IMG/VR virus record: IMGVR_UViG_3300042691_041718
Span: 122,466 to 186,465 of that record
Source of the DNA: a virus
Length of the DNA: 64,000 nucleotides
Reading direction: 5' to 3' (one strand)
Shown: positions 42,681-62,700 of the stretch, one piece after another
Layout: every line of letters begins with the position of its first letter
How positions within the stretch are numbered: the stretch's first letter is position 1
Position numbers and translations under genes: made by a program
The notes under the pieces: model-generated
The model's input: the letters and a program-made list of their open reading frames with translations, nothing else
Database searches by the model: none
What the model was told of the DNA's origin: nothing

Positions 42681-44549
42681 ATGATAGAACAATTAAAGAA
42701 TAAGATTAAAGAAGCAAACGAGGCATATAGAATTGGAAAACCAATTATGTCTGATAAAGAATATGATATTCTTGTAGAAGAGTTATCTGATATGTCACCA
42801 GATGATGAATTGTTATCTGTTGTAGGACATGAAATTCTTGACGAAACGAGAAAAACTCGTCTACCTATTCCAATGGCTTCTATGAACAAAATTAAGTCTT
42901 TAGAAGAAATTAAAGACTGGCAACGTCTTAAACTTATCCCAAACTCTGTTGAAATTATCTGTACACCTAAATATGATGGTCTTTCTTTATGTAAAGATGA
43001 AGAAAACAACGGTGATGCTATCACTCGTGGAGATGGTGTTTATGGTCAAAAATCAAATGAACACTATAAACTTATAGGAAACAAGTTATATGACATTGAA
43101 AATGATATAGATCCTTTCGCACCTATTACTTTCTCACATAGTTATGGTGAAGTTATTATGCCTAAACGAGTATTTATCGATAAATACTCAAATGATTATG
43201 CTAACCCAAGAAACTTCGTGGCTGGTCTTATCAACTCACCAGATGCGAGAGAAGCTTTAAAAGATTGTAACTTTATTAAATATGGTGCTATTCCATCATC
43301 AAAATTCAGAAATCATTTCACCACTAAACAACAAATATTAGATGAATTAAATGAGAATCAAAAAGTAAAAGTACCTTATCATGTTTGTGGCATTTTAGAT
43401 TTAACAGAAGAATTACTTATCTCTTTATTTAAAGAATGGTCTGAAGAATATGAGATTGATGGTATTATCTTAGAGGTAAATAACTTAGCAACACAATCAT
43501 CATTAGGTCGTGAAACTTCATCAGGTAACCCAGTATTCGCAAGAGCATTCAAACACCCAAGTTTCGAGCAATCAGCTGAAACAGAAGTAATTGGTATTAC
43601 TTGGAATATTTCTAAACAAGGTTTATTAAAACCGGTATTACATATCAAACCTGTTAAATTAGACGGAGTTACTGTATCTAATGTAACTGGTAATAACGCT
43701 CGTTTCGTAAAAGATATGGGATTGGGAGTTGGTGCTAAAGTTGTTGTTAAACGTAGTGGTATGGTTATTCCAATTATTGCTGACGTATTAGAAACAGTTG
43801 AATTTGTTTTACCAACTATCGAAGGTGTTGAGATTGATTGGAATGAGGCTGGTATTGAGTTAATCACATTAACTGAAACAGAAGAGCAAAAATTAAAAAA
43901 GAATATCGCTTTCTTTGAGATATTAGAAGCTGATAATGTTTCAGAAGGTGTTATCACACAATTGTGGGATGCTGGTTATAAAACTATTAAAGATATTTTA
44001 AATCTTAAAGTAGAAAACTTAGAAAAGATTGATCGTTTTGGTAAACGTAAAGCTAAAATTGTTTATGACTCAATTCAAAAGTCTATCACTGGTGTTCAAT
44101 TATCTAAATTACAACACGCTACTGGCATCTTCTCTGGATTAGGAAGTAAAAAGTTAGCTCTGTTAGAACACTTCAATGAAAAACCTACTGTTGGAAAAGT
44201 TATGGAAATTGAAGGATTTGCTGAGATTTCTGCTAAAACTTATGTTGATAATTATGATAAGTTCTTCGAGTTTATTTCTGATTTACCAGTTACTATTTCT
44301 GAGAAAGTTGAAGTAGTACAAGTTTCTAATGACTTAGAAGGTAAGCAGTTTGTATTCACAGGAGTTCGTCGAAAAGAATTAGAAGAGGTTATTGAATCTC
44401 GTGGTGGTAAAATTGGTGGTAGTGTTAGTAAAAACACAACACACTTAGTTATGAAAGCGATTGGTTCTGGTTCTTCTAAAGAGAAAAAGGCTCTTGATTT
44501 GGGAGTAGAAGTTATTACTGTTGAACAATTAGAGGATCTATTAAAATAA
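42681..44549 (+). CDS. ligA: NAD-dependent DNA ligase
   Basis: AYRIGKPIMSDKEYD, TPKYDGLS (KxDG), TRGDG..G, ANPRNFVAG, IDGII, OB domain, HhH repeats and a C-terminal BRCT domain. Confidence 0.95.
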   Translation: MIEQLKNKIKEANEAYRIGKPIMSDKEYDILVEELSDMSPDDELLSVVGHEILDETRKTRLPIPMASMNKIKSLEEIKDWQRLKLIPNSVEIICTPKYDGLSLCKDEENNGDAITRGDGVYGQKSNEHYKLIGNKLYDIENDIDPFAPITFSHSYGEVIMPKRVFIDKYSNDYANPRNFVAGLINSPDAREALKDCNFIKYGAIPSSKFRNHFTTKQQILDELNENQKVKVPYHVCGILDLTEELLISLFKEWSEEYEIDGIILEVNNLATQSSLGRETSSGNPVFARAFKHPSFEQSAETEVIGITWNISKQGLLKPVLHIKPVKLDGVTVSNVTGNNARFVKDMGLGVGAKVVVKRSGMVIPIIADVLETVEFVLPTIEGVEIDWNEAGIELITLTETEEQKLKKNIAFFEILEADNVSEGVITQLWDAGYKTIKDILNLKVENLEKIDRFGKRKAKIVYDSIQKSITGVQLSKLQHATGIFSGLGSKKLALLEHFNEKPTVGKVMEIEGFAEISAKTYVDNYDKFFEFISDLPVTISEKVEVVQVSNDLEGKQFVFTGVRRKELEEVIESRGGKIGGSVSKNTTHLVMKAIGSGSSKEKKALDLGVEVITVEQLEDLLK

Positions 44550-44595
44550 TAGATAGTATCAAATAGATAATTCTAAGGTAAGGTGAAATGAACAA

Positions 44596-44622
44596 CCCAT
44601 ATCTTAATATATAAGATATGGG
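44596..44622 (+). promoter_or_regulatory. perfect 11-bp hairpin burying the AUG of the LAGLIDADG gene, with the late motif across the loop
   Basis: CCCATATCTTA-ATATA-TAAGATATGGG. Confidence 0.8.
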
Positions 44623-45409
44623 AAAGAAAAAACAAATTGATGAAAAAGAGATTATTAGACTTTATACCGAAGAGAATTTTAGTGCTAGTAAAATAGGAAG
44701 ACTTTTTAATGTTGATGTCGCTACTATAACAAACAGGTTAAAAGTTAATAATATTGAGGTTAAAAAGACTCATAGAAAATATTTGATAAACAAAGATTAT
44801 TTTGAAGTAATAGATTCGGAAGATAAAGCTTATTGGTTGGGTTTTTTGATGGCTGATGGTTATAATAGTGGTAAGTTTATTAGAGTGGATATACAAGATG
44901 AGGGACATTTGGAAAAATTGAGAGATAAAATTTATGTAAATTGTGATATGCCGGTTAGAAAAAAGAAAAATATAATAAACGGTAAAGATATTTTTTATCT
45001 AACAATACAAGATAAAAAGTTATTATCTGATGTTGATTGTTTAGGATTAGTTAAGAGAAAAAGCAAAATTGTTACTTATCCAAATATAGATTCGGAATTT
45101 GATAGATTTTTTATAAAAGGTATTTTTGATGGTGATGGTTGTTTGACTTACTCAATGGATAAAAATTATAGAAGATATACTTTTTCCATTGTTGGTTCTT
45201 ATGATTTGATGAAGACTTTACAATTAATACTTTCTAAAAATAATGTTAATATTAAATTAAGAAAAATGAAGTCGATATATTCAGTTTATCTAAGAGGTAA
45301 TAGACAAATAATTAAGGTTTTAGATTGGTTGTATGATGAAACAACCACTCATTTAGATAGAAAATATGAAAAATATCAAGATATGTTAAATTACTATAAA
45401 AATAAATAA
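44618..45409 (+). mobile_element. LAGLIDADG homing endonuclease
   Basis: KAYWLGFLMADG and FFIKGIFDGDG motifs; N-terminal HTH. Confidence 0.9.
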
Positions 45410-48570: not shown

Positions 48571-49841
48571 ATATAGAAAGTCTTTGTAGATCAGCTCTAC
48601 AAATAATTAAAGATACTTGGGGTATTCCAAAAACAGGATTTATTGCTGGTGGTTCTATTGCTAATATTGCGTGGGAATTAGTTTCCGGTAAAAAAGCAGT
48701 TGTAAATGATATTGATGTTTTTATTTTTAGAAATAAAATAGATAAATTCTCTAATGTTGATAGAGATAGTCTTTATAGATATAAAGTTGATGATATTAAA
48801 GCTTATGAAGATTATACTGGTATAAACTGGAGTACTTACACAAAAAATTTCTATTCAATCGCATCGTCTGAAAAAGACGGAATATTTAATATTATAGAAT
48901 ACGATTCAAATATCGAAGATCCAAAGTTTATTATAGACTCATTTGATATAAATTGTACAGCAGTTGGTTATTCAATTGATGAAGATAAATTTTATTGGAC
49001 TAAAGAGTTTGAGAATTTCTTGAAAACCGGTGAATTGAAGATAGTTAACTTAACCACACCATCACATACTGCTATCAGAATAATTAAAAAGTCTGATGAA
49101 TTAGGTTGTGAATTAGATGAATTTGAGTATAAGATCCTGTCTTATGTAATCAGTAATAGTTACTATTTCTCAGATGTTTCAAAAAGAATGTTTAAAGAAA
49201 GATATTATGAAATATTTGAAAAATACTCAGATAAGTTAAGTAATTACTTTAATATAGTTAGGTGTTTAGATGATGAGATGTATATAAAAACTATGTTTAA
49301 TTCTGATGATAAGTTATATAAATTGATACCAGTTAAATATGTTAAAGAAGAAAAAGTATTATTTGATGTTATAAACATGGTTGATAAAGGATTTGAATAT
49401 TGGAGTGACTCTGATATAACATCTATTCAAACTTGTAAGAACTTCTTATTCTATATAAGAAATGTTTATGAAAATGAAGAGATTAAAAAAATATGGAAGT
49501 CTTATAATTTTAACACAGAAGATTATATAGATTGTCAACCGAGTAAAGAAGATTTAGATTTACTTAAAAGACTTGTTGAGAACACAAGAGCAATAAACTC
49601 ACTCAATGGTTACACTCTATCAGAACAATTAAATATAATTAAAACTTTATTTAATGAGTTTTCTGATGATCCAATTATAGCAATTTCTCTATTAGAAAAA
49701 GAGGGGTTTAAAATGCCTGATATTATTGATGATAGTGAGAAATTATTATTGGAATTATCGGTTAGAAAAGAAATTGTTAATGATACTAAAGGTAAAGTTA
49801 GAAAAGTTCTAAACTTAGAGAATAAAATTAAAGAAATTTAA
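48567..49841 (+). CDS. nucleotidyltransferase (CCA/poly(A) polymerase head-like)
   Basis: FIAGGSIAN, VNDIDVF (DxD), DSFDINCTAVG. Confidence 0.7.
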   Translation: MNIESLCRSALQIIKDTWGIPKTGFIAGGSIANIAWELVSGKKAVVNDIDVFIFRNKIDKFSNVDRDSLYRYKVDDIKAYEDYTGINWSTYTKNFYSIASSEKDGIFNIIEYDSNIEDPKFIIDSFDINCTAVGYSIDEDKFYWTKEFENFLKTGELKIVNLTTPSHTAIRIIKKSDELGCELDEFEYKILSYVISNSYYFSDVSKRMFKERYYEIFEKYSDKLSNYFNIVRCLDDEMYIKTMFNSDDKLYKLIPVKYVKEEKVLFDVINMVDKGFEYWSDSDITSIQTCKNFLFYIRNVYENEEIKKIWKSYNFNTEDYIDCQPSKEDLDLLKRLVENTRAINSLNGYTLSEQLNIIKTLFNEFSDDPIIAISLLEKEGFKMPDIIDDSEKLLLELSVRKEIVNDTKGKVRKVLNLENKIKEI

Positions 49842-50544
49842 AAAATCTACCTTTAATACTTCTTAATTTATTATTACAAACTCTACTAATATTACCCTGA
49901 TCTAATTTTGTATCTCTTGAACAATCCATAATAGATAACCATCTATTAATTTCCAATCCATTATAATCAACCTCAATGACTATTTTTTTAACAGCATTGG
50001 GGTTTTCTAATTTTATATCACTATTCATTTCATATCTAAAAATATATCCCCCTGTGTGTTTAAACTTACCATTACAACATCTTGATATATTACCATGATT
50101 TAGATTTAATTCAGAAGCGGCTGTTCTCGCACTTCTAAACTCCTTTATGAAATTACCATCTAAATCATATTGATATACTTTTTTACCAGAGTTTTCAGAT
50201 TGTCTATCTAAAACTTCTCTCTTGCGATTTGTATTGCCTTGTCCAGTTTCATCAGAGTTAGTTAATCTATTACAAGAATAAATTTTTATATACTCAGTCT
50301 CATACTTCTCATATTCATGAGATGGACATGTTCTTAAAAAGGTTATTTTGGGATGTAAACCAATTGATGTTAATTTTCTCAACCAGTTAACTCTATAATT
50401 TTTTTTATTTATATCTTTAGACTCTATTAAATGACTTTCTAATCTGGAATGTGGATTAATTGTTTTACCAATATACCTTATCTCATCATTTCTAGGATCA
50501 ACCAATCCATAGATATAAGCAACTTCACAAGTTAAATTTTCCAT
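49828..50544 (-). mobile_element. GIY-YIG homing endonuclease with NUMOD1 repeats
   Basis: YIYGLVDP...RYIGKT..P.SRL..H; VYQYDLDGNFIKEF.S..AA...ISRCC. Confidence 0.85.
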
Positions 50545-50640
50545 ATTTTATAAACTGGTAGTTATTAAAATGGTGGTGCTTCCCTTGTATAATAAACTTT
50601 TTTATATTTAAATGATATAAATAAAAAATAAAATAAAATT

Positions 50641-50967
50641 ATGATAGCTTATATTACTGAATTAAATGAACAAAACTATGAGTCTTTTACTAAAAATGGT
50701 TTGGTATTAGTTGACGTTCTAGCGACGTGGTGTGGACCGTGTCGGGTTGTTGGTCCTTTAGTAGATCAAATTTCTTCAGAGTACAAAGAAAAGGGTTTAA
50801 GTGTTGGTAAATTAGATGCTGATGGAGCCAAAGACTTAATTAGAGAATTAGGAATAAGAAATATTCCAACTTTACTTGTCTATAAAGATGGTGAAATAGT
50901 TGAGAGAAATACAGGAAATGTAACAAAAGAAAAAATAGAAGAATTAATTAATAACCATTTAAATTAA
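50641..50967 (+). CDS. trxA: thioredoxin
   Basis: WCGPC active site, IRNIPTL cis-Pro loop. Confidence 0.95.
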   Translation: MIAYITELNEQNYESFTKNGLVLVDVLATWCGPCRVVGPLVDQISSEYKEKGLSVGKLDADGAKDLIRELGIRNIPTLLVYKDGEIVERNTGNVTKEKIEELINNHLN

Positions 50968-50972
50968 TTTTT

Positions 50973-51509
50973 ATGAAATCAATTGAGTATTTATATAGTT
51001 TAGTAGATCAATCTAACTTTACTACAATTGGATATACTTCAAATGATAAAAATTTAAAAAATGAATTTATTTCTAAATTATCATATATTGATTTAAGAGA
51101 AATAGATCCATCTTTTTCTTTTAATGGTAGTCTTAAACAAAAGATAAGAGATATTAGATTAGATTCTATTCTAAATGATTCGGAAGATTTATCAAAAATA
51201 AACTTTAAATACATATTGATTGATTACAACGATTTACCACATTTACAAAAAAGTGATGTATATAAATCAATACAATTAAATCAAATAGTTGAAAAGTTAA
51301 GAAGTGAGTGTGTAGAATGTGGATTAAAAGTAATTTTTACTGCACCAACATACACTTCATTAGAAGTAACACCATCTCAAAATTTAAAGGGAGGGAGTGG
51401 AAGTATGTATATTGCTGATTTGGCTTTTATGATTGATAAGGGAGTTGCTAAACTAATGAAAAATAGATTTGGAGCGGATAACGAAACATTTTCATTAAAT
51501 GAATTATAA
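50973..51509 (+). CDS. degenerate DnaB/RecA-like fold protein
   Basis: YILIDY, GGSGSMYIADL, KNRFG resemble DnaB C-terminal motifs; no intact Walker A. Confidence 0.45.
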   Translation: MKSIEYLYSLVDQSNFTTIGYTSNDKNLKNEFISKLSYIDLREIDPSFSFNGSLKQKIRDIRLDSILNDSEDLSKINFKYILIDYNDLPHLQKSDVYKSIQLNQIVEKLRSECVECGLKVIFTAPTYTSLEVTPSQNLKGGSGSMYIADLAFMIDKGVAKLMKNRFGADNETFSLNEL

Positions 51510-52568
51510 TGATATATAATTACTAATTATGTTAGATATATTTTCAAAATCTGTATATTTTATCACTATTAAATTTATATTCATATTATTACAATAATTA
51601 ACTTTTATATTATCCTTAGTTTTAATATCTAATAAATAAGAATGTCCTCCAAAAGCTTTAACTTCTCCATAATGTTGAATACCATTATATTCTATACAAG
51701 TATTATATTCGGGTAAATAGAAGTCAAATCTTAATTTTTTCTTATAAACACAATCATCAAAAGTTTTTTGTGTTTCATATTTTATACCTTTTTTAGTCAA
51801 AAACCAAGATATAATCTTTTCACCTTTTGACTCATTACATTTAGCACAACCTGATCCAGATGTATGTAAATAAGGTTTTTGTTTAAAAATTCCGTGTTTT
51901 TTACATATTATATTAACATCAGTTTTGAAGTTTTTATATACTGATAAACTATAATCATATTTATCACCATGTACTTTAATCGATTTATCTACAAAATCAT
52001 CATTATCATATACAAATCCACCACATTTCTGGCAACCAGATACAAGATGGTTTGATATTCTTTGTGTAAACACACCATGAATTTCACACTTGATATCTAT
52101 AAAGTCCGACAATTTATATCTTTCTTCACAGAGGAGATAAGTATAAGAACCATTATGTTTATCATTAAATCTTTTTATTAATTCATCATTTTTTATACAT
52201 TTCACATTACACATTGAGCATCCACTACCATTTAAGTGTGATTGTGGAGTTTGGTTAAAAATTCCGTGTTTAGTACAAATTATCTCGACTTTAGTCCTAT
52301 TATTAATATAATTCACCAATGAGTAATCATATAAATTACCATGTTTACTAACCGACTTTTTGATAAAATCATCCTTTGATAAAGATGGCGCACCCTTTGT
52401 ACATTTACCACAACCACCACCTCGTTTATGATGATGTGGTGTTTGTTCAAAAACGCCATGAATCTTACATATTATCTCTATTTTTGTTATATTGTTAATA
52501 TAATTAACTAATGAGTAGTCATAAGCATCACCGTGTATAGACTTAAACTTTTCTATCTCTTTTTTCAT
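51504..52568 (-). mobile_element. homing endonuclease with DUF723-like Zn repeats + PD-(D/E)xK/Vsr-like nuclease
   Basis: Four HG..YDYSL..Y......V.I.C..HG.F.Q....H..G.GC..C repeats; LRFDFYLPEYNTCIEYNGIQHY. Confidence 0.8.
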
Positions 52569-52677
52569 TTTCTATTTTTTTCTTTCTACTGAACATTCCT
52601 TTACAAGATCTTCTACAAAAAAGAGAGTCAGATCTTTTATCAACCAATTCTTTATTACACCATTTACACTTTTTCAT
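52543..52677 (-). CDS. small zinc-finger protein (44 aa, not in the ORF track) overlapping the endonuclease start
   Basis: Hand translation: MKKCKWCNKELVDKRSDSLFCRRSCKGMFSRKKKIENEKRDRKV. Confidence 0.65.
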   Translation of the reverse strand: MKKCKWCNKELVDKRSDSLFCRRSCKGMFSRKKKIENEKRDRKV

Positions 52678-52697
52678 TATTTATATATTAAATAATG
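52675..52697 (-). promoter_or_regulatory. perfect 9-bp hairpin burying the AUG, with the late motif across the loop
   Basis: Minus strand CATTATTTA-ATATA-TAAATAATG. Confidence 0.8.
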
Positions 52698-52740
52698 TAG
52701 CCCCTTATAAAACTTTTGTTTATTTTTGTATAAAAAATAT

Positions 52741-53181
52741 ATGATAGTAAGTAATAGAAAGGCTCGATATTCGTTTGATGTAATTGAAGAATTTGATTGC
52801 GGTATTATTTTAACAGGTAGTGAAGTTAAATCTATCAGAAGAGGTGATGTTACCTTAGTTGATTCGTATGCTTACTTTAAGTCTGGTGAGTTATGGATTA
52901 AAAACTTAAAAGTTTCTCGTTACAAATGGTCTCATAAAATTGAAGTTCATGATGAAAATCGTGAAAAGAAATTATTATTACATAAGAAAGAGATCGCTAA
53001 AATAGATAGACTTATACAAGATAAAGGAACTACTATTATACCATTAGGTATTTTCATTCAAAATAACAGATTGAAATTGAAAATTGGTGTTTGTAAAGGT
53101 AAGAAACTTTGGAATAAAAAGCAAGATATCAAACAAAGGGATATTGATAGAGATGCTAAAAGAGAAATGAATTTTAGATAA
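52741..53181 (+). CDS. smpB: SsrA-binding protein
   Basis: NRKARY....EEFDCGIILTGSEVKSIR, R.KKLLLHKKEI, G.TIIPL, KGKK..NK...IK.RD..R. Confidence 0.95.
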   Translation: MIVSNRKARYSFDVIEEFDCGIILTGSEVKSIRRGDVTLVDSYAYFKSGELWIKNLKVSRYKWSHKIEVHDENREKKLLLHKKEIAKIDRLIQDKGTTIIPLGIFIQNNRLKLKIGVCKGKKLWNKKQDIKQRDIDRDAKREMNFR

Positions 53182-53531
53182 TGGGTAAAAACTTTGATGA
53201 ATATCAAAAAATACTTAAAGAATTAAATCAGTCTAATACTGAGGAAGATATCATTTCAAATATTGAAAAGATAGTTAAAGGATTTAGTGTTGATTTTTAC
53301 AGAGAAGATTTAACAAAAAATCCTTTTTATAAATCTATCTTATTAGAGATAAAGGAAGATGTATTAGAAGATCTTTATAAGATTAGACAAACTATTTTAG
53401 ATGAAATGGAATCAATAAGTAGGTCTATATTAGAAGAGGTTGATGTAGATAAACTAATTCAATTAAAAGTTGAATGTCAGTTACTTTTAATTGAATTAGA
53501 TTATAAAATAGAAGATATTAAATCTATATAA
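53181..53531 (+). CDS. hypothetical helical protein
   Basis: 116-aa ORF coupled to smpB. Confidence 0.6.
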   Translation: MGKNFDEYQKILKELNQSNTEEDIISNIEKIVKGFSVDFYREDLTKNPFYKSILLEIKEDVLEDLYKIRQTILDEMESISRSILEEVDVDKLIQLKVECQLLLIELDYKIEDIKSI

Positions 53532-55296
53532 GATCAATCATTCTTTCCATGAATTTAATACCTTTCATTGATTTATTATAATCATCATCATCAAAATTAC
53601 GCATCATATTCTCAACTTCATCGCTGTATCTAAATTCCTCCATAATTCTTATGGTTCTGTATGATAATCTATTAGTATCATGTATATTGTGAATATTTTG
53701 AAGATTACTAATAATAATTGAAATATCATAAAGATTTACTATTTCTCTGGATCTAATTTTAGTTGTAAATTTTTTACCAATTCTCAATATATTTTCAAAT
53801 ACTTCTTTTAACTTTTCGTTATCAGATTTCATTATTAACTCATATGAATTCTTAAACTTAGGAGTGGTTGATTGATAATCCTCTAATAATTTTCTATATT
53901 GTTCTTTAATTGATTGAAGTGAACTCTCAACATAATTTTTCAGTTGTTCTTCATTTTGCAGTTTTTCAATACTTTCAAGACCATCAAAAAAGTAATAAAA
54001 TCCACTTATAATACTCGCATTAAAACCTCTAAATAGTGTAATAATAACATAATCATCTTTCAATATTTTCAACAAGATTGATTTTAGATTAGACATTTCA
54101 TCGATTTTAAGATTTTGATCTATTTTCATTTTGTCAACTAAATAATCAAGTCTTTTATCAACATTAATCTTTTTAATTTCTTCATTACTCATTAAAGCAG
54201 TAGCTCCGGATTTACTCTCAATTCTTTCTTTTCTAATACTTGTTAAGTCTCCTTCCATCTGTGGGAGAAACTCATCTATGTAAAATATTATAGCAAAATC
54301 TGAATCTTCTAAATCTTCTTTATAAATAGATTTGTTTTTTTCATCACTTCTATCATACTTTTGTATTTCAAAAGTTCTAAGACTATTAATATCTTTACGA
54401 ACACTCAAGTTCCAAGTATTAGGATCTTCATTCTCAGCTTTTTTGGGAGAATCACCAACAACATGTAAATCTTCACTTGTATGTTTATAAAGATGTACTT
54501 TGTAATTATCACTTTGTAAACCAACACCACTCTCAGATAAAATCCAAGATCCTATATAATTACGTTCTCTATCACTTACATTACTATATAAATGATCAAT
54601 TACACTAGCATATTCTACACCGTTTTCATCATAATAATAATCAGCAGATCCACCACTAAGATTTTTACCATAAGCAACATATGATCTAAAACGACCATAT
54701 TCATCATGAGATGAGAAAATTTTAGCCCAATTTAAGTGATAAGAATAGTCTCTACTATAATTTATATCACCACTACAACTATAAAAGGCTATAATATCAC
54801 CTGTTTTTAAATGTAGATTTTTAACATAATCATTATCAACTATACTTAATTCTCCTTTTGTTAAATCGACACCTATTAACTGGGAAGCGGAGTCAACCGC
54901 TTTCTCCTTTAATAGAGAAATTTCTTCTGGTTCAAATGGTTCAAATTTTCTACTCTCACTTTTACTTTTAACTCTTTCTCCACTTCTATTCGGAGTAACA
55001 CTAAATCCTTTATAACCATCAGTTGCGGAAAACCAAAATTTAATAGCCCAAGTATGATTAACCGAATCTTCTGGTGCTCTCATCTTAATAGCTTTATTGG
55101 CTAATATATTAACATCAAAAAAGTTATCAGTTATAGAACTTAAAGGAATTGAATTATTTTCACATATTTTCTTTAAATCTTCAATAAAAGGTTTGCTATT
55201 TAATTTCATTTTAGATAACCACCCAGTTGTCTTTGTTAAAAATTGAGATTCAAATTTCTCATTTAAAAAACTTTGTCTATATTTAAGGTATTTCAT
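53524..55296 (-). CDS. hypothetical protein with a capsid-targeting-like N-terminus
   Basis: MKYLKYRQSFLNEKF; TAATATATA 5 nt upstream. Confidence 0.7.
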   Translation of the reverse strand: MKYLKYRQSFLNEKFESQFLTKTTGWLSKMKLNSKPFIEDLKKICENNSIPLSSITDNFFDVNILANKAIKMRAPEDSVNHTWAIKFWFSATDGYKGFSVTPNRSGERVKSKSESRKFEPFEPEEISLLKEKAVDSASQLIGVDLTKGELSIVDNDYVKNLHLKTGDIIAFYSCSGDINYSRDYSYHLNWAKIFSSHDEYGRFRSYVAYGKNLSGGSADYYYDENGVEYASVIDHLYSNVSDRERNYIGSWILSESGVGLQSDNYKVHLYKHTSEDLHVVGDSPKKAENEDPNTWNLSVRKDINSLRTFEIQKYDRSDEKNKSIYKEDLEDSDFAIIFYIDEFLPQMEGDLTSIRKERIESKSGATALMSNEEIKKINVDKRLDYLVDKMKIDQNLKIDEMSNLKSILLKILKDDYVIITLFRGFNASIISGFYYFFDGLESIEKLQNEEQLKNYVESSLQSIKEQYRKLLEDYQSTTPKFKNSYELIMKSDNEKLKEVFENILRIGKKFTTKIRSREIVNLYDISIIISNLQNIHNIHDTNRLSYRTIRIMEEFRYSDEVENMMRNFDDDDYNKSMKGIKFMERMIDLI

Positions 55297-59715: not shown

Positions 59716-62700
59716 TTAAACTGCATAATAAGGTATCTTATAGTTAGTACCATTTATATTTGTACATATGTAACCAGCAATCGCACCAGCCGAAACAGCT
59801 GTGGCTAATGGATAAAGTGATGAACCTAAAGCTAATTGACCATCTACACTTGGTTGAGCTCTCATACCAATTGCAATAGCACATGAGTAATTACCACTGA
59901 TACCAGCACACGTACCAATAAATGTATTAAACCTACCCGTTGTTTGATTTAGACCAGTACATTCACCAATAAATATGTTGTTACCACCGGTTGTATTATA
60001 GTAACCAGCCGCTCTACCCAAGAATGTGTTGTTTGCTCCAGTTGTATTACAATAACCAGCTGCATATCCAACAAATGTGTGAGCACAAGAGAATAAATTA
60101 TTTTTACCAGCTTCACCACCAACAAATGTATTAAAATTAGCATCATTACAATTACAATATCCGGCATTGTTTCCAATAAATACGTTTCCACGACCACTTG
60201 TATTATTATAACCAGAACTATTACCAATAAATGTATTACCTACACCAGTTGTGTTGGATAAACCAGAAAAAGCACCAACAAATGTGTTACCGGTTGTTGT
60301 ATTTGCTCTACCAGCAGCATATCCTACAAATGTATTATTACATCCGTCTGTATTAACACAACCAGTATTAACACCTACAAATGTATTATAATCACCAGTT
60401 TCACTAACAAAACCAGAGCAATATCCGATAAATGTATTATAAATACCACTTGTATTACCATAACCAGATGATTCACCAATAAATGTATTACCTTGACCCG
60501 AAACATTTGATGCACCCGATGCCCAACCTATATATGTGTTTGATATACCAGTTGTATTTTGCCATCCAGCATAAACACCAAAGAATGAGTTATAATTTCC
60601 AATTGTGTTATACTGTCCTGCTTGTACACCAACAATAGTATTTTCAAAACCAGTGGTATTTTCAAAACCAGCATTAGTACCTAAGAATGTATTTAATCTA
60701 CCTGATGTATTTGAATAACCAGTACCAGAACCAATGAATGTATTTAATTCACCAGTTGTATTAACTGGACCTGTACAAGATCCTACAAATGTGTTATCAG
60801 TACCACAACCACCATTATTTATCGCTGACTTACCAGAATGATATCCAATAAACGTATTATCAAGTCCATTAGCACAACATCCTGCACAAGTACCTATAAA
60901 TGTATTTCTTCGACCAGTAGTATTACAATAACCAGCATCTGCTCCAATAAAAGTATTACATTCACCAGAAACATTATAGTAACCACTCGATTTACCAACA
61001 AATGTATTTTCATGTCCAGTTGTATTACTGAAACCCGCTTGATTACCAACAAATGTATTATTTGAACCAGTTACGTTAGTAGAACCACTAAGATTACCAA
61101 TGAATGTATTATTTGAACCTGATGTGTTGGAAGATCCGGAGCAAAATCCAACGAATGTATTGGTACTAGTTTTGTTATTATAACCAGAGCAAACACCAAT
61201 AAATGTATTTTGAGACGATTGGGTTCCACTGAAACCGGATAATTTTCCAATATATACATTACTAAAACCAATATTATTATCATAACCAGAGCAATTACCT
61301 ATAAATATATTATCAGAACCAGATGTAAAATACCCAGCTCTAACACCCATTGATATCGTATTTGACGCACCATTACTAGAAAAACCGGATAATGTACCAA
61401 TATAGATATTTTCGCTAGTTGTTGTATTACTATAACCAGCACCTTGACCAATATAAGTATTACAAATTCCGACCGTATTAGAAACTCCAGCGTTAACGCC
61501 AATAAATGTATTTCTTTCACCTGCTGTGTTACTACCACCAGTACAGTGTCCTATAAATACATTAGCAATCCCGGTTAAATTACACATACCTGATTGATAT
61601 CCAATGAAAGTGTTGAAAGATCCTGTTGTGTTTTCACTCCCAGATTTATAACCGATAAATGAATTAGAAGATCCAATTGTATTTTTATTACCCGATAGAT
61701 ATCCAATAAATGTATTACTGTTTATAATATTGGAATATCCTGAACAAAAACCTATAAATGTATTAAATGATGATTGTGTTCCCGAATAACCAGATCTAAA
61801 TCCCAAATATGTATTATCACAGGAATAAAAACTTAAAAAACCAGATTGATGACCAAATATCACGTTGCATTTTTGTGAATTTGTTGCATTCTGTGAATTA
61901 GGATTTGGGTTAAAAGATCCACCGGTTTGATATCCTACAAATGTATTTAGACATGAATACTTATTACCACCCCCACTATAAGCACCTATAAATAAATTTG
62001 TTGATGATACACCAGTACAAGCACCTGAACAAAATCCAATCATGACACTTGAAAATCCATATGAATCTGAGTATCCAGCAAAAGATCCAATATATGTATT
62101 TTGACCAATACCATATGATATAGATCCACCAGACGCTGCACCTAGTGATGTGTTGTAAGAACTAGTGGCGTTTATTAACCCCCCACCTCCACCAGAAATA
62201 TATCCAACTAAAGTATTGAATTGACCTTGTAATTCAGCACCAGTAAAAGCACCAATATAAGTGTTAGCTATTTGTACTGTGTTGCAATTAGCTGAGTAAT
62301 TACCTATAAATGTGTTATAACTACCAGTTGTGTTACTACAACCAGAATTACTACCAATGAATAAGTTATTATCACCAAAGGTATTACTACAACCTGACTT
62401 AGTACCAATAAATATATTTTCAAAACCGGTTATATTATTAGAACCAGATAGAGATCCGATGAATATATTACTAAATCCGGTTGTGTTACCACAACCAGAT
62501 TGATGTCCTATAAATGTATTATCCAATCCGGTTGTGTTTATTGGACTACTATTGTTTATAAGAATTGAACCCCTAGTCGAATCCATCAATCCAAATTGAC
62601 CCAATCCACCTAAACCATTATTAATCTGTATTTGATTTTGAACACCGGCTACTAATAAGGAGGTTCCTGAAGTACCAGAAGTACCTTTAACTCCAGATGT

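Follow-up and report, generated by a model that had tools for sequence, protein, structure and literature searches.

The subject of this work is a small genetic element found in a stretch of viral DNA 64,000 nucleotides (nt) long, hereafter called the window (IMG/VR virus record IMGVR_UViG_3300042691_041718). The window is the reverse complement of positions 69694–133693 in a 191-kb viral contig with 28% G+C and an estimated completeness of 73%, and the closest deposited relatives of this genome are “uncultured phage” genomes of 630–735 kb. Between the open reading frame (ORF) ORF178 and smpB its minus strand contains a nuclease gene of homing-endonuclease type (51504–52568) and, ahead of it, a mini-gene (52543–52677) which is the first cistron and encodes a Cys4 zinc finger with a basic helix, 44 amino acids (aa) in total. 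Further upstream on the same strand there are a promoter-like motif TAATATATA (52682–52690, or 52682–52692 together with its T-run), ending 4 nt before the mini-gene ATG, and a conserved cassette-specific box AAGGGGCTACAT (52695–52706). The motif is embraced by a perfect 9-bp palindrome with a 5-nt centre, CATTATTTA-ATATA-TAAATAATG (52675–52697, minus strand), and the 3′ arm of this palindrome ends in the mini-gene ATG (52675–52677). We consider it probable that a huge T4-like phage of Bacteroidota has acquired, between ORF178 and smpB, a free-standing homing-endonuclease cassette some 1.2 kb long, whose control region and first cistron are represented by these elements.

The insertion can be recognized by comparison with related phages. 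Synteny thioredoxin-(ORF178)-smpB-(ORF116)-ORF590 was traced in nine related contigs of 150–635 kb (LR745206 and eight IMG/VR contigs of 150–483 kb), and in all nine the nuclease and the mini-gene are absent from the site between ORF178, or thioredoxin, and smpB, while L017, L051/52 and L055 have an ORF178 homolog directly adjoining or overlapping smpB. Relatives of SmpB were found with an alignment query; a single-sequence scan of viral contigs gave none. Since the promoter, the mini-gene and the nuclease are absent together at the syntenic site, they can be regarded as one inserted unit with an approximate extent, relative to related phages, of 51510–52720. Thus, the two-gene mobile unit assumed in the original prediction, which was made from the letters of this DNA alone, is supported by its joint absence from nine related huge phages, and the empty site expected between the ORF at 50973 and smpB does exist there. 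On the opposite side of the insertion stands the divergent gene smpB (52741–53181, plus strand), preceded by TATTTTTG, a Bacteroidota-type −7 box located at 52721–52728 on the plus strand. This box contains the TTG at 52726, and for this reason the real start of smpB is the ATG at 52741. Since the TAnnTTTG box before smpB is present in the empty alleles too, it is ancestral, and the cassette was inserted just upstream of it in the divergent orientation. The idea that the cassette brought its own outward promoter of host type for the displaced neighbour was rejected, as cassette-free relatives already have TAnnTTTG before smpB.

The mini-gene (MKKCKWC...FCRRSC, with cysteines arranged as C-x2-C-x13-C-x3-C) is not an isolated curiosity of this genome. 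An exhaustive profile-free search revealed two free-standing homologs of 45–46 aa with about 60% identity, and scans of viral and metagenomic contigs extended the family to 20 distinct loci. Twelve residues, including C4, C7, C21 and C25, are invariant across the 20 sequences, and over the 31 codons outside the overlap with the nuclease pairwise dN/dS has a median of 0.17, synonymous sites being close to saturation. As judged by these comparisons, the mini-gene is a genuine gene under purifying selection, and since its peptide is constrained in this way, it should be more than a leader peptide. The 44-aa CxxC...CxxxC ORF noticed earlier as overlapping the nuclease gene has thereby turned out to be a conserved zinc-finger gene. 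An AlphaFold model obtained with the family alignment consists of a short β-hairpin and a helix 15–43 (mean pLDDT 78). The best Pfam match, zf-RRPl_C4, scored 17.8 bits against a cut-off of 28.9 and lies below every Pfam threshold; no sequence match was found in PDB at E ≤ 10 and no fold match with Foldseek (best E 4.6). Weaker matches (E from 6e-6 to 9e-4) fall on tandem C-x2-C...FC-x2/3-C modules in proteins ending in HNH, in DUF559 (Vsr-like) plus NUMOD3 or in SegE-type GIY-YIG domains. Since these matches fall on tandem repeats of such nucleases, the mini-protein appears to be a copy of the DNA-binding module used by homing endonucleases. It has the same C-x2-C...FC-x2/3-C module as their zinc-finger or treble-clef parts (DUF2116-like, fused to HNH, GIY-YIG or DUF559), but is free-standing, single-copy and only 44 aa long. 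The basic helix and the related nuclease-fused modules suggest that it binds zinc and nucleic acid. A tblastn search gave no match for the mini-protein in deposited phage genomes; the architecture of a zinc-finger mini-protein followed by a nuclease was found in none of 50,697 such genomes and in no paper of the literature searched, where neither the literal motif nor homing endonucleases with zinc-finger partners gave anything relevant.

In every mini-gene locus the order of control elements is the same: the box, which is AAGGGGCTACAT here and has the family consensus AAGGG-N-YACAT, a T-run, the motif (T/A)ATATATA, four bases and then the mini-gene. The motif and its 4-nt spacing are conserved in all related mini-gene loci, and each locus has a single copy of the box, which the other promoters of the genome do not have. 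As no second copy of it was found within 2 kb in any locus, nor at other promoters of the genome, its interpretation as a homing-site mimic or as one of two operator copies was abandoned.

The motif TAATATATA, hereafter class A, is represented by 54 copies across the 191-kb genome. An ORF of at least 40 aa begins no more than 30 nt downstream of 44 copies (81%), the corresponding value for AT-only 9-mers being 14%. In 21 copies the motif is located 3–6 nt ahead of ATG (background 2.5%), with a modal spacing of 4 nt, and a second cluster is formed by copies situated 17–25 nt upstream of the start. Association with gene starts tolerates only two single substitutions, TTATATATA and AAATATATA; all others behave as background. 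At the fifth position past the motif 43 of the 54 copies, long-spacer class included, have A, and no −35-like element was found around them. A few bases ahead of ATG TTTAATATATA is present in all five nuclease paralogs of this genome and in the gene at 44618. The second class of promoter-like elements (class B) was revealed by a genome scan as TAnnTTTG boxes upstream of 21 genes, DNA ligase and smpB among them. It is known that TAnnTTTG is the −7 element of Bacteroidota sigma-A promoters, with G at −5 and a known position of the start site (PMC6847099). The presence of such boxes before 21 genes independently confirms the signal of Bacteroidota as the host phylum. No Shine-Dalgarno (SD) sequences are evident in the genome. 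Bacteroidota hosts do without them, and most mRNAs in this phylum are leadered.

Class A and the host −7 box have the same geometry, in which the last base is followed by four bases and then by A, and the class B box upstream of smpB in relatives leaves the same 4-nt gap to ATG. Because the distance from the motif to A matches the host box and the same spacing is observed before smpB, one can assume that the short-spacer genes, the mini-gene included, are transcribed as leaderless mRNAs; for the mini-gene the predicted start site is the A of its ATG, 52677. We infer from these statistics that TAATATATA acts as a single-element promoter with a fixed start site, resembling the late promoter of T4. 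Class A is found ahead of genes for virion proteins, of several homing-endonuclease genes and of one resembling a primase gene, class B ahead of ligase, smpB and other enzymes; a tentative label “late” is plausible for the former. The Pfam model of Gp23 matched only a mini-mimic in this genome. Altogether, 65 genes are associated with TAATATATA and 21 with TAnnTTTG, mostly in the form TATATTTG (for example, window positions 52721–52728 and 44549–44618); elements of both classes often end exactly 4 nt ahead of ATG, and the sites upstream of smpB in L017, L049, L050 and L055 are further examples. These two classes of promoters, TAATATATA and host-type TAnnTTTG, are thus proposed for an uncultured phage group in which many mRNAs are predicted to be leaderless.

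Within this set of sites the palindrome of the mini-gene is exceptional. If stem length is measured as perfect pairing around each of the 54 copies of TAATATATA, 51 copies have stems of 2–4 bp and the remaining three have 7, 9 and 11 bp. With position-specific composition the expected number of stems of at least 9 bp is 0.034 and two were observed; for stems of at least 7 bp these values are 0.37 and 3. The three long palindromes head a LAGLIDADG gene, an HNH gene and the mini-gene cassette. Burial of AUG was estimated as the free-energy cost of keeping it unpaired, and in the ranking of 193 gene starts the LAGLIDADG gene is the first (9.8 kcal/mol), the HNH gene the fifth (5.2 kcal/mol) and the mini-gene cassette the seventh (4.3 kcal/mol). 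As a class, starts of homing-endonuclease genes (HEGs) are more buried than those of other genes (Mann-Whitney p=0.03). Outside the motif the arms of the three palindromes have no common sequence, and their common feature is complementarity extending up to the start codon; therefore a role of secondary structure is favoured over that of a common protein operator. Among other gene starts, strong burial of AUG is predicted at G000:C1:136244, 28455 and 74290 (8.4, 6.4 and 5.9 kcal/mol), which are non-HEG or HEG-adjacent and of which the first two fall outside the window. The GIY-YIG/NUMOD endonuclease gene at 49828–50544 is preceded by a box-like AAGGGAAGCAC (window positions 50545–50600, minus strand) instead of an exact class A motif, and its AUG has a moderate opening cost of 2.6 kcal/mol (rank 20 of 193).

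The strongest of the three hairpins, the 11-bp CCCATATCTTA-ATATA-TAAGATATGGG, was found at window positions 44595–44623 of the plus strand, where it buries the AUG of the gene 44618–45409 encoding a LAGLIDADG homing endonuclease (PF14528). It is located just downstream of a co-oriented, class B-driven gene of NAD-dependent DNA ligase. Relatives of the LAGLIDADG gene came to light through a protein search and look-ups of contigs, while scanning viral contigs with its single sequence gave none, and the hairpin is kept in these relatives (L040–L048) from 94% down to 59% of protein identity, so that even the altered inner stems still pair. The stand-alone HNH gene, located outside the window (genome positions 60459–61238; region G000:C1:60446–61238, L001), has its own TAATATATA inside a palindrome of 7–8 bp reaching AUG and follows two co-oriented genes. 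Co-oriented upstream genes that could supply read-through RNA are thus clearly present at both the LAGLIDADG and HNH genes.

Free-standing homing endonucleases need to be expressed in a way that is harmless to the phage carrying them, and to our knowledge T4 is almost the only system in which the control of their expression has been worked out. In this T4-type control, described for I-TevI, I-TevII, I-TevIII and segB, as well as for phage Aeh1 mobE, the initiation region is sequestered in a hairpin that also contains a late promoter: read-through RNA hides the initiation region, while RNA started from the promoter inside the hairpin is translatable (PMC2988022). The LAGLIDADG locus appears to reproduce exactly the arrangement reviewed for T4 (PMC2988022). 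In both cases a phage-specific, single-element, AT-rich promoter, a predicted one here, lies in a stem-loop with the initiation signal in the 3′ arm, and RNA from this promoter is predicted to be devoid of the 5′ arm here too; in the present T4-like phage this arrangement stands ahead of the LAGLIDADG gene, the HNH gene and the mini-gene cassette. The differences are that the motif is TAATATATA here and TATAAATA in T4, that the predicted own transcript is leaderless and that the start codon itself is paired with no SD involved. The latter can be explained by the absence of SD sequences in the host phylum. The motif, the predicted leaderless geometry and the occlusion of the start codon are adaptations to an SD-less host, and the promoter-in-hairpin logic of T4 would be reused in huge Bacteroidota phages. 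According to the original prediction, the recurrence of this design before unrelated nucleases pointed to convergent domestication of selfish genes. The palindrome with the ATATA centre (positions 52697 to 52675, ending in ATG) and a second one with the same ATATA centre (44597–44621) are indeed there, and AUG-burying palindromes do precede three nuclease families. Their shared loop, however, is the common promoter-like motif and not an independent invention, and the whole design, being the established T4 scheme (PMC2988022), is no evidence of convergent domestication.

At the mini-gene cassette the same principle can be applied as follows. The loop and inner stem of the hairpin are formed by the phage's own abundant promoter-like motif, (T)TTAATATATA, ending 4 nt before ATG. 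As motif statistics and geometry suggest, transcripts of the cassette may start at or beside AUG and would then be leaderless, so the palindromic extension would fold only on RNA begun further upstream, an assumption in which we have moderate confidence. On such RNA the AUG would pair with the CAU of the conserved box, and the cost of initiation would rise by about 4 kcal/mol. In the fold AUG occupies the last three pairs of the 9-bp stem, with a probability of being paired of 0.99, and with position-specific composition the chance of such a stem has a per-site probability of 7e-4.

A number of observations weigh against this scheme. The hairpin core has only −4.2 kcal/mol and a single G-C pair, the rest being A-U, and the 101-nt context gives no significant fold (z=−1.2). 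As the 5′ arm takes its CAT from the conserved box upstream and the inner arm is part of the promoter motif, fewer bases are free than the raw count implies. The opening cost of AUG in the 19 related mini-gene loci varies between 0.05 and 5.5 kcal/mol (median 2.1), the pairing shifts its register, and none of these loci has the perfect palindrome seen here. In six of the relatives, including the nearest one by upstream sequence, less than 1 kcal/mol is needed to open AUG, and burial, where present, arises from pairing of the promoter T-run with Lys codons after ATG in another register. It had been stated that absence of the hairpin from homologous loci or lack of conservation of the mini-gene would speak against the proposed unit; the former is partly the case, in view of this spread and shifting register, while conservation of the mini-gene holds. 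Moreover, in contrast to the co-oriented early gene of the T4 systems, the immediate upstream neighbour, smpB here, is divergent both at this locus and in the relatives. The co-oriented upstream gene, encoding 590 aa, lies 850 nt away, and though no terminator was predicted between it and the hairpin, its RNA would have to pass through smpB in antisense orientation. As the promoter of this gene is of the same class as that of the cassette, no temporal switch that the hairpin could enforce is apparent. Besides, 11–13 of the 16 HEGs in this genome show no burial of AUG, and the promoter role and the start site of TAATATATA are deduced from sequence statistics. The device is therefore weak and lineage-specific here and, unlike in T4-type systems, not conserved; an RNA-gating function at this site is a possibility, to which we give somewhat less than an even chance.

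The most serious alternative is that the 9-bp palindrome is a functionless by-product, in which a box ending with CAT, a T-run with a near-symmetric motif and an A/T-rich 4-nt spacer were brought into register by a small deletion. As the CAT of the box is conserved in most relatives and TTTA is part of the motif, only about four more bases and the spacing have to fit; the closest relatives (L020, L024, L037 and L015) have no such hairpin, the structure is weak, and the divergent neighbour leaves little read-through to gate. This explanation, however, has to accommodate the low per-site probability and the excess of long stems over the genome-wide expectation, as well as the fact that all three long palindromes are found at the starts of homing-endonuclease cassettes. 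Approximately half of the relatives bury AUG by at least 2.5 kcal/mol, whereas the maximum for non-HEG short-spacer promoters in the genome is 2.4. We therefore regard a chance origin of the palindrome as possible but rather doubtful.

The second cistron, encoding 354 aa, has treble-clef repeats of the DUF723/DUF4379-like type and a Vsr-like C-terminal region. It matches phrog_559 (8.5e-95) and phrog_9084 “homing endonuclease” (4e-27), and at the DNA level it is similar to “VSR homing endonuclease” genes of Staphylococcus phages, for example phiIPLA-RODI. In these respects it is like the free-standing Vsr-like/DUF723 homing endonucleases of large phages, but association with a mini-gene is seen at this locus only: of the five paralogs in the genome, the other four lack a mini-gene and have the promoter immediately ahead of their ATG. 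The 3′ end of the mini-gene overlaps the nuclease start by 26 nt (52543–52568), the nuclease being read in the +1 frame from the ATG at 52566–52568, which stands in an unpaired A-rich context. Where relatives have an intact partner, the overlap is 8 to 23 nt long and, as at this locus, invariably 2 mod 3, the nuclease starting within the K-N-E/D codons of the mini-protein. As expected from the predicted co-occurrence, an intact nuclease ORF with ATG start overlaps the mini-gene in 15 of the 19 relatives. In the other four, one each, there are a GTG start, a partner cut by the contig end, a frameshifted nuclease and a C-terminal HNH remnant, and the mini-gene is intact in all of them. The decayed partners (HNH remnant at L023:339–560, frameshift at L032:1810–2563) represent the expected degenerative phase in the life cycle of homing endonucleases, with the mini-gene outlasting the nuclease. 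An artificial split of one gene by a frameshift or sequencing error was rejected: a TAG two codons ahead of ATG closes the frame of the nuclease, addition or removal of one A in the A8 run gives stops, and in L015 the frame is likewise closed.

No promoter motif was found inside the mini-gene, and the nuclease, having no promoter of its own, must be the second cistron. Most probably the mini-gene is co-transcribed with the overlapping nuclease gene, and the mini-protein, likely to bind nucleic acid, would then be a partner or regulator of the nuclease rather than a passive leader peptide. The original prediction saw here a leader peptide gated by the hairpin, with the nuclease translated by termination and reinitiation across the 26-nt overlap. 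Conservation of the overlap, which measures 8–26 nt and equals 2 mod 3 wherever the partner is intact, and the position of the nuclease as second cistron are in line with such coupling, and the upstream ORF does end beyond the downstream start. Two other features of a coupled leader, an inaccessible downstream start and an unconstrained peptide, are lacking. The opening cost of the nuclease AUG is only 0.19 kcal/mol and the 200-nt transcript has z=0.19, while unpaired A-rich start contexts are known to support direct, SD-independent initiation in Bacteroidota (PMC6847099). Since the nuclease AUG is unpaired, obligatory coupling to the mini-ORF is not supported, and re-initiation after it is possible but not required. 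The peptide itself is strongly constrained (dN/dS and the 12 invariant residues given above), it stays intact where the nuclease has decayed, and four paralogous nucleases manage without it. Dependence of nuclease translation on a hairpin-gated leader is thus unlikely.

The partner in all relatives is an HNH-type gene of phrog_1035, which is 39% identical to the stand-alone HNH gene of the present genome (the partner from L020 was compared). The Vsr/DUF723-type partner was found only at this locus, among both the approximately 20 mini-gene loci and the five paralogs. DNA homology to the relatives begins at the promoter, continues through roughly the first 33 codons of the mini-gene and breaks off where the nuclease starts, from which it follows that the 5′ module has recombined with a different nuclease.

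The palindrome may also act at the level of DNA, either by binding a dimeric regulator or by forming a cruciform in the promoter region between the divergent cassette and smpB. What can be said for it is that a perfect inverted repeat covers a promoter in a cassette encoding a putative DNA-binding zinc finger, and that I-TevI represses its own late promoter via an overlapping operator (PMC2988022). But the arms of the three palindromes are alike only in the motif and in complementarity to the start codon, in mini-gene relatives they are not conserved though the protein is, and the conserved box is a better candidate for the operator. Nor is a bidirectional promoter formed, as the motif on the plus strand has a change that is not tolerated, and smpB has its own ancestral −7 box. 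Taken together this makes a DNA-level role quite improbable. The more specific assumption that the palindrome provides a promoter for smpB was discarded, since the plus-strand TTATATATT is changed at the position where substitutions reduce the association with gene starts to background. Equally improbable is that TAATATATA is a signal of RNA processing or translation initiation, with AUG-adjacent 5′ ends produced by cleavage: the promoter reading is based on sequence statistics, a homolog of the T4 late sigma factor gp55 was not found in the 73%-complete contig, and the motif occurs also directly after stop codons in tightly packed operons, but position-specific stringency, the fixed distance to a conserved A, the geometry of the host −7 box and independence from downstream context fit a promoter, and the 5′ arm would be absent from mature RNA either way, with the same consequence for the hairpin.

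Returning to the inserted homing-endonuclease cassette, one can tentatively suggest, as a possibility that we rate well below the insertion itself, that the mini-gene, the AAGGG-N-YACAT box and the promoter constitute a portable 5′ control module serving differing nuclease families (HNH in about 19 lineages and the Vsr/DUF723 type here). The zinc-finger protein would then be a trans-acting DNA-binding partner, either a repressor binding the box, in which case self-control in the style of I-TevI would have been taken over by a protein of its own, or a subunit that targets or assists the nuclease. As the operator of I-TevI overlaps its late promoter, so the conserved AAGGG-N-YACAT abuts the promoter here, and a zinc finger of DNA-binding type is encoded by the cassette; the difference is that the putative repressor is a separate protein of 44 aa and not the nuclease, and a search for similarity of the box to a homing site found none. 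While the promoter-in-hairpin design is already known from T4, the zinc-finger partner encoded by the mini-gene is apparently undescribed, and a zinc-finger mini-protein followed by a nuclease forms a conserved two-gene architecture. If the mini-protein does regulate or target the nuclease, it would represent a new class of accessory proteins of selfish nucleases, and its compact DNA-binding module may be of practical use.

The surroundings of the insertion are stable in this group of phages. The block thioredoxin-(ORF178)-smpB-ORF116-ORF590, with the last gene convergent, is conserved between the window (50641–55296) and L017 and L049–L055, and since it is common to contigs of 150–635 kb, the phage-encoded SmpB can be considered as a stable feature of the group. 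No homolog of the 207-aa neighbour gene of the relatives was found in the present genome. The overlap of ORF116 with the convergent ORF590 is 8 nt long and has no terminator. In two relatives (L053:1646–2956) a 436-aa gene similar to S-adenosylhomocysteine hydrolase is located between thioredoxin and smpB, where it replaces ORF178.

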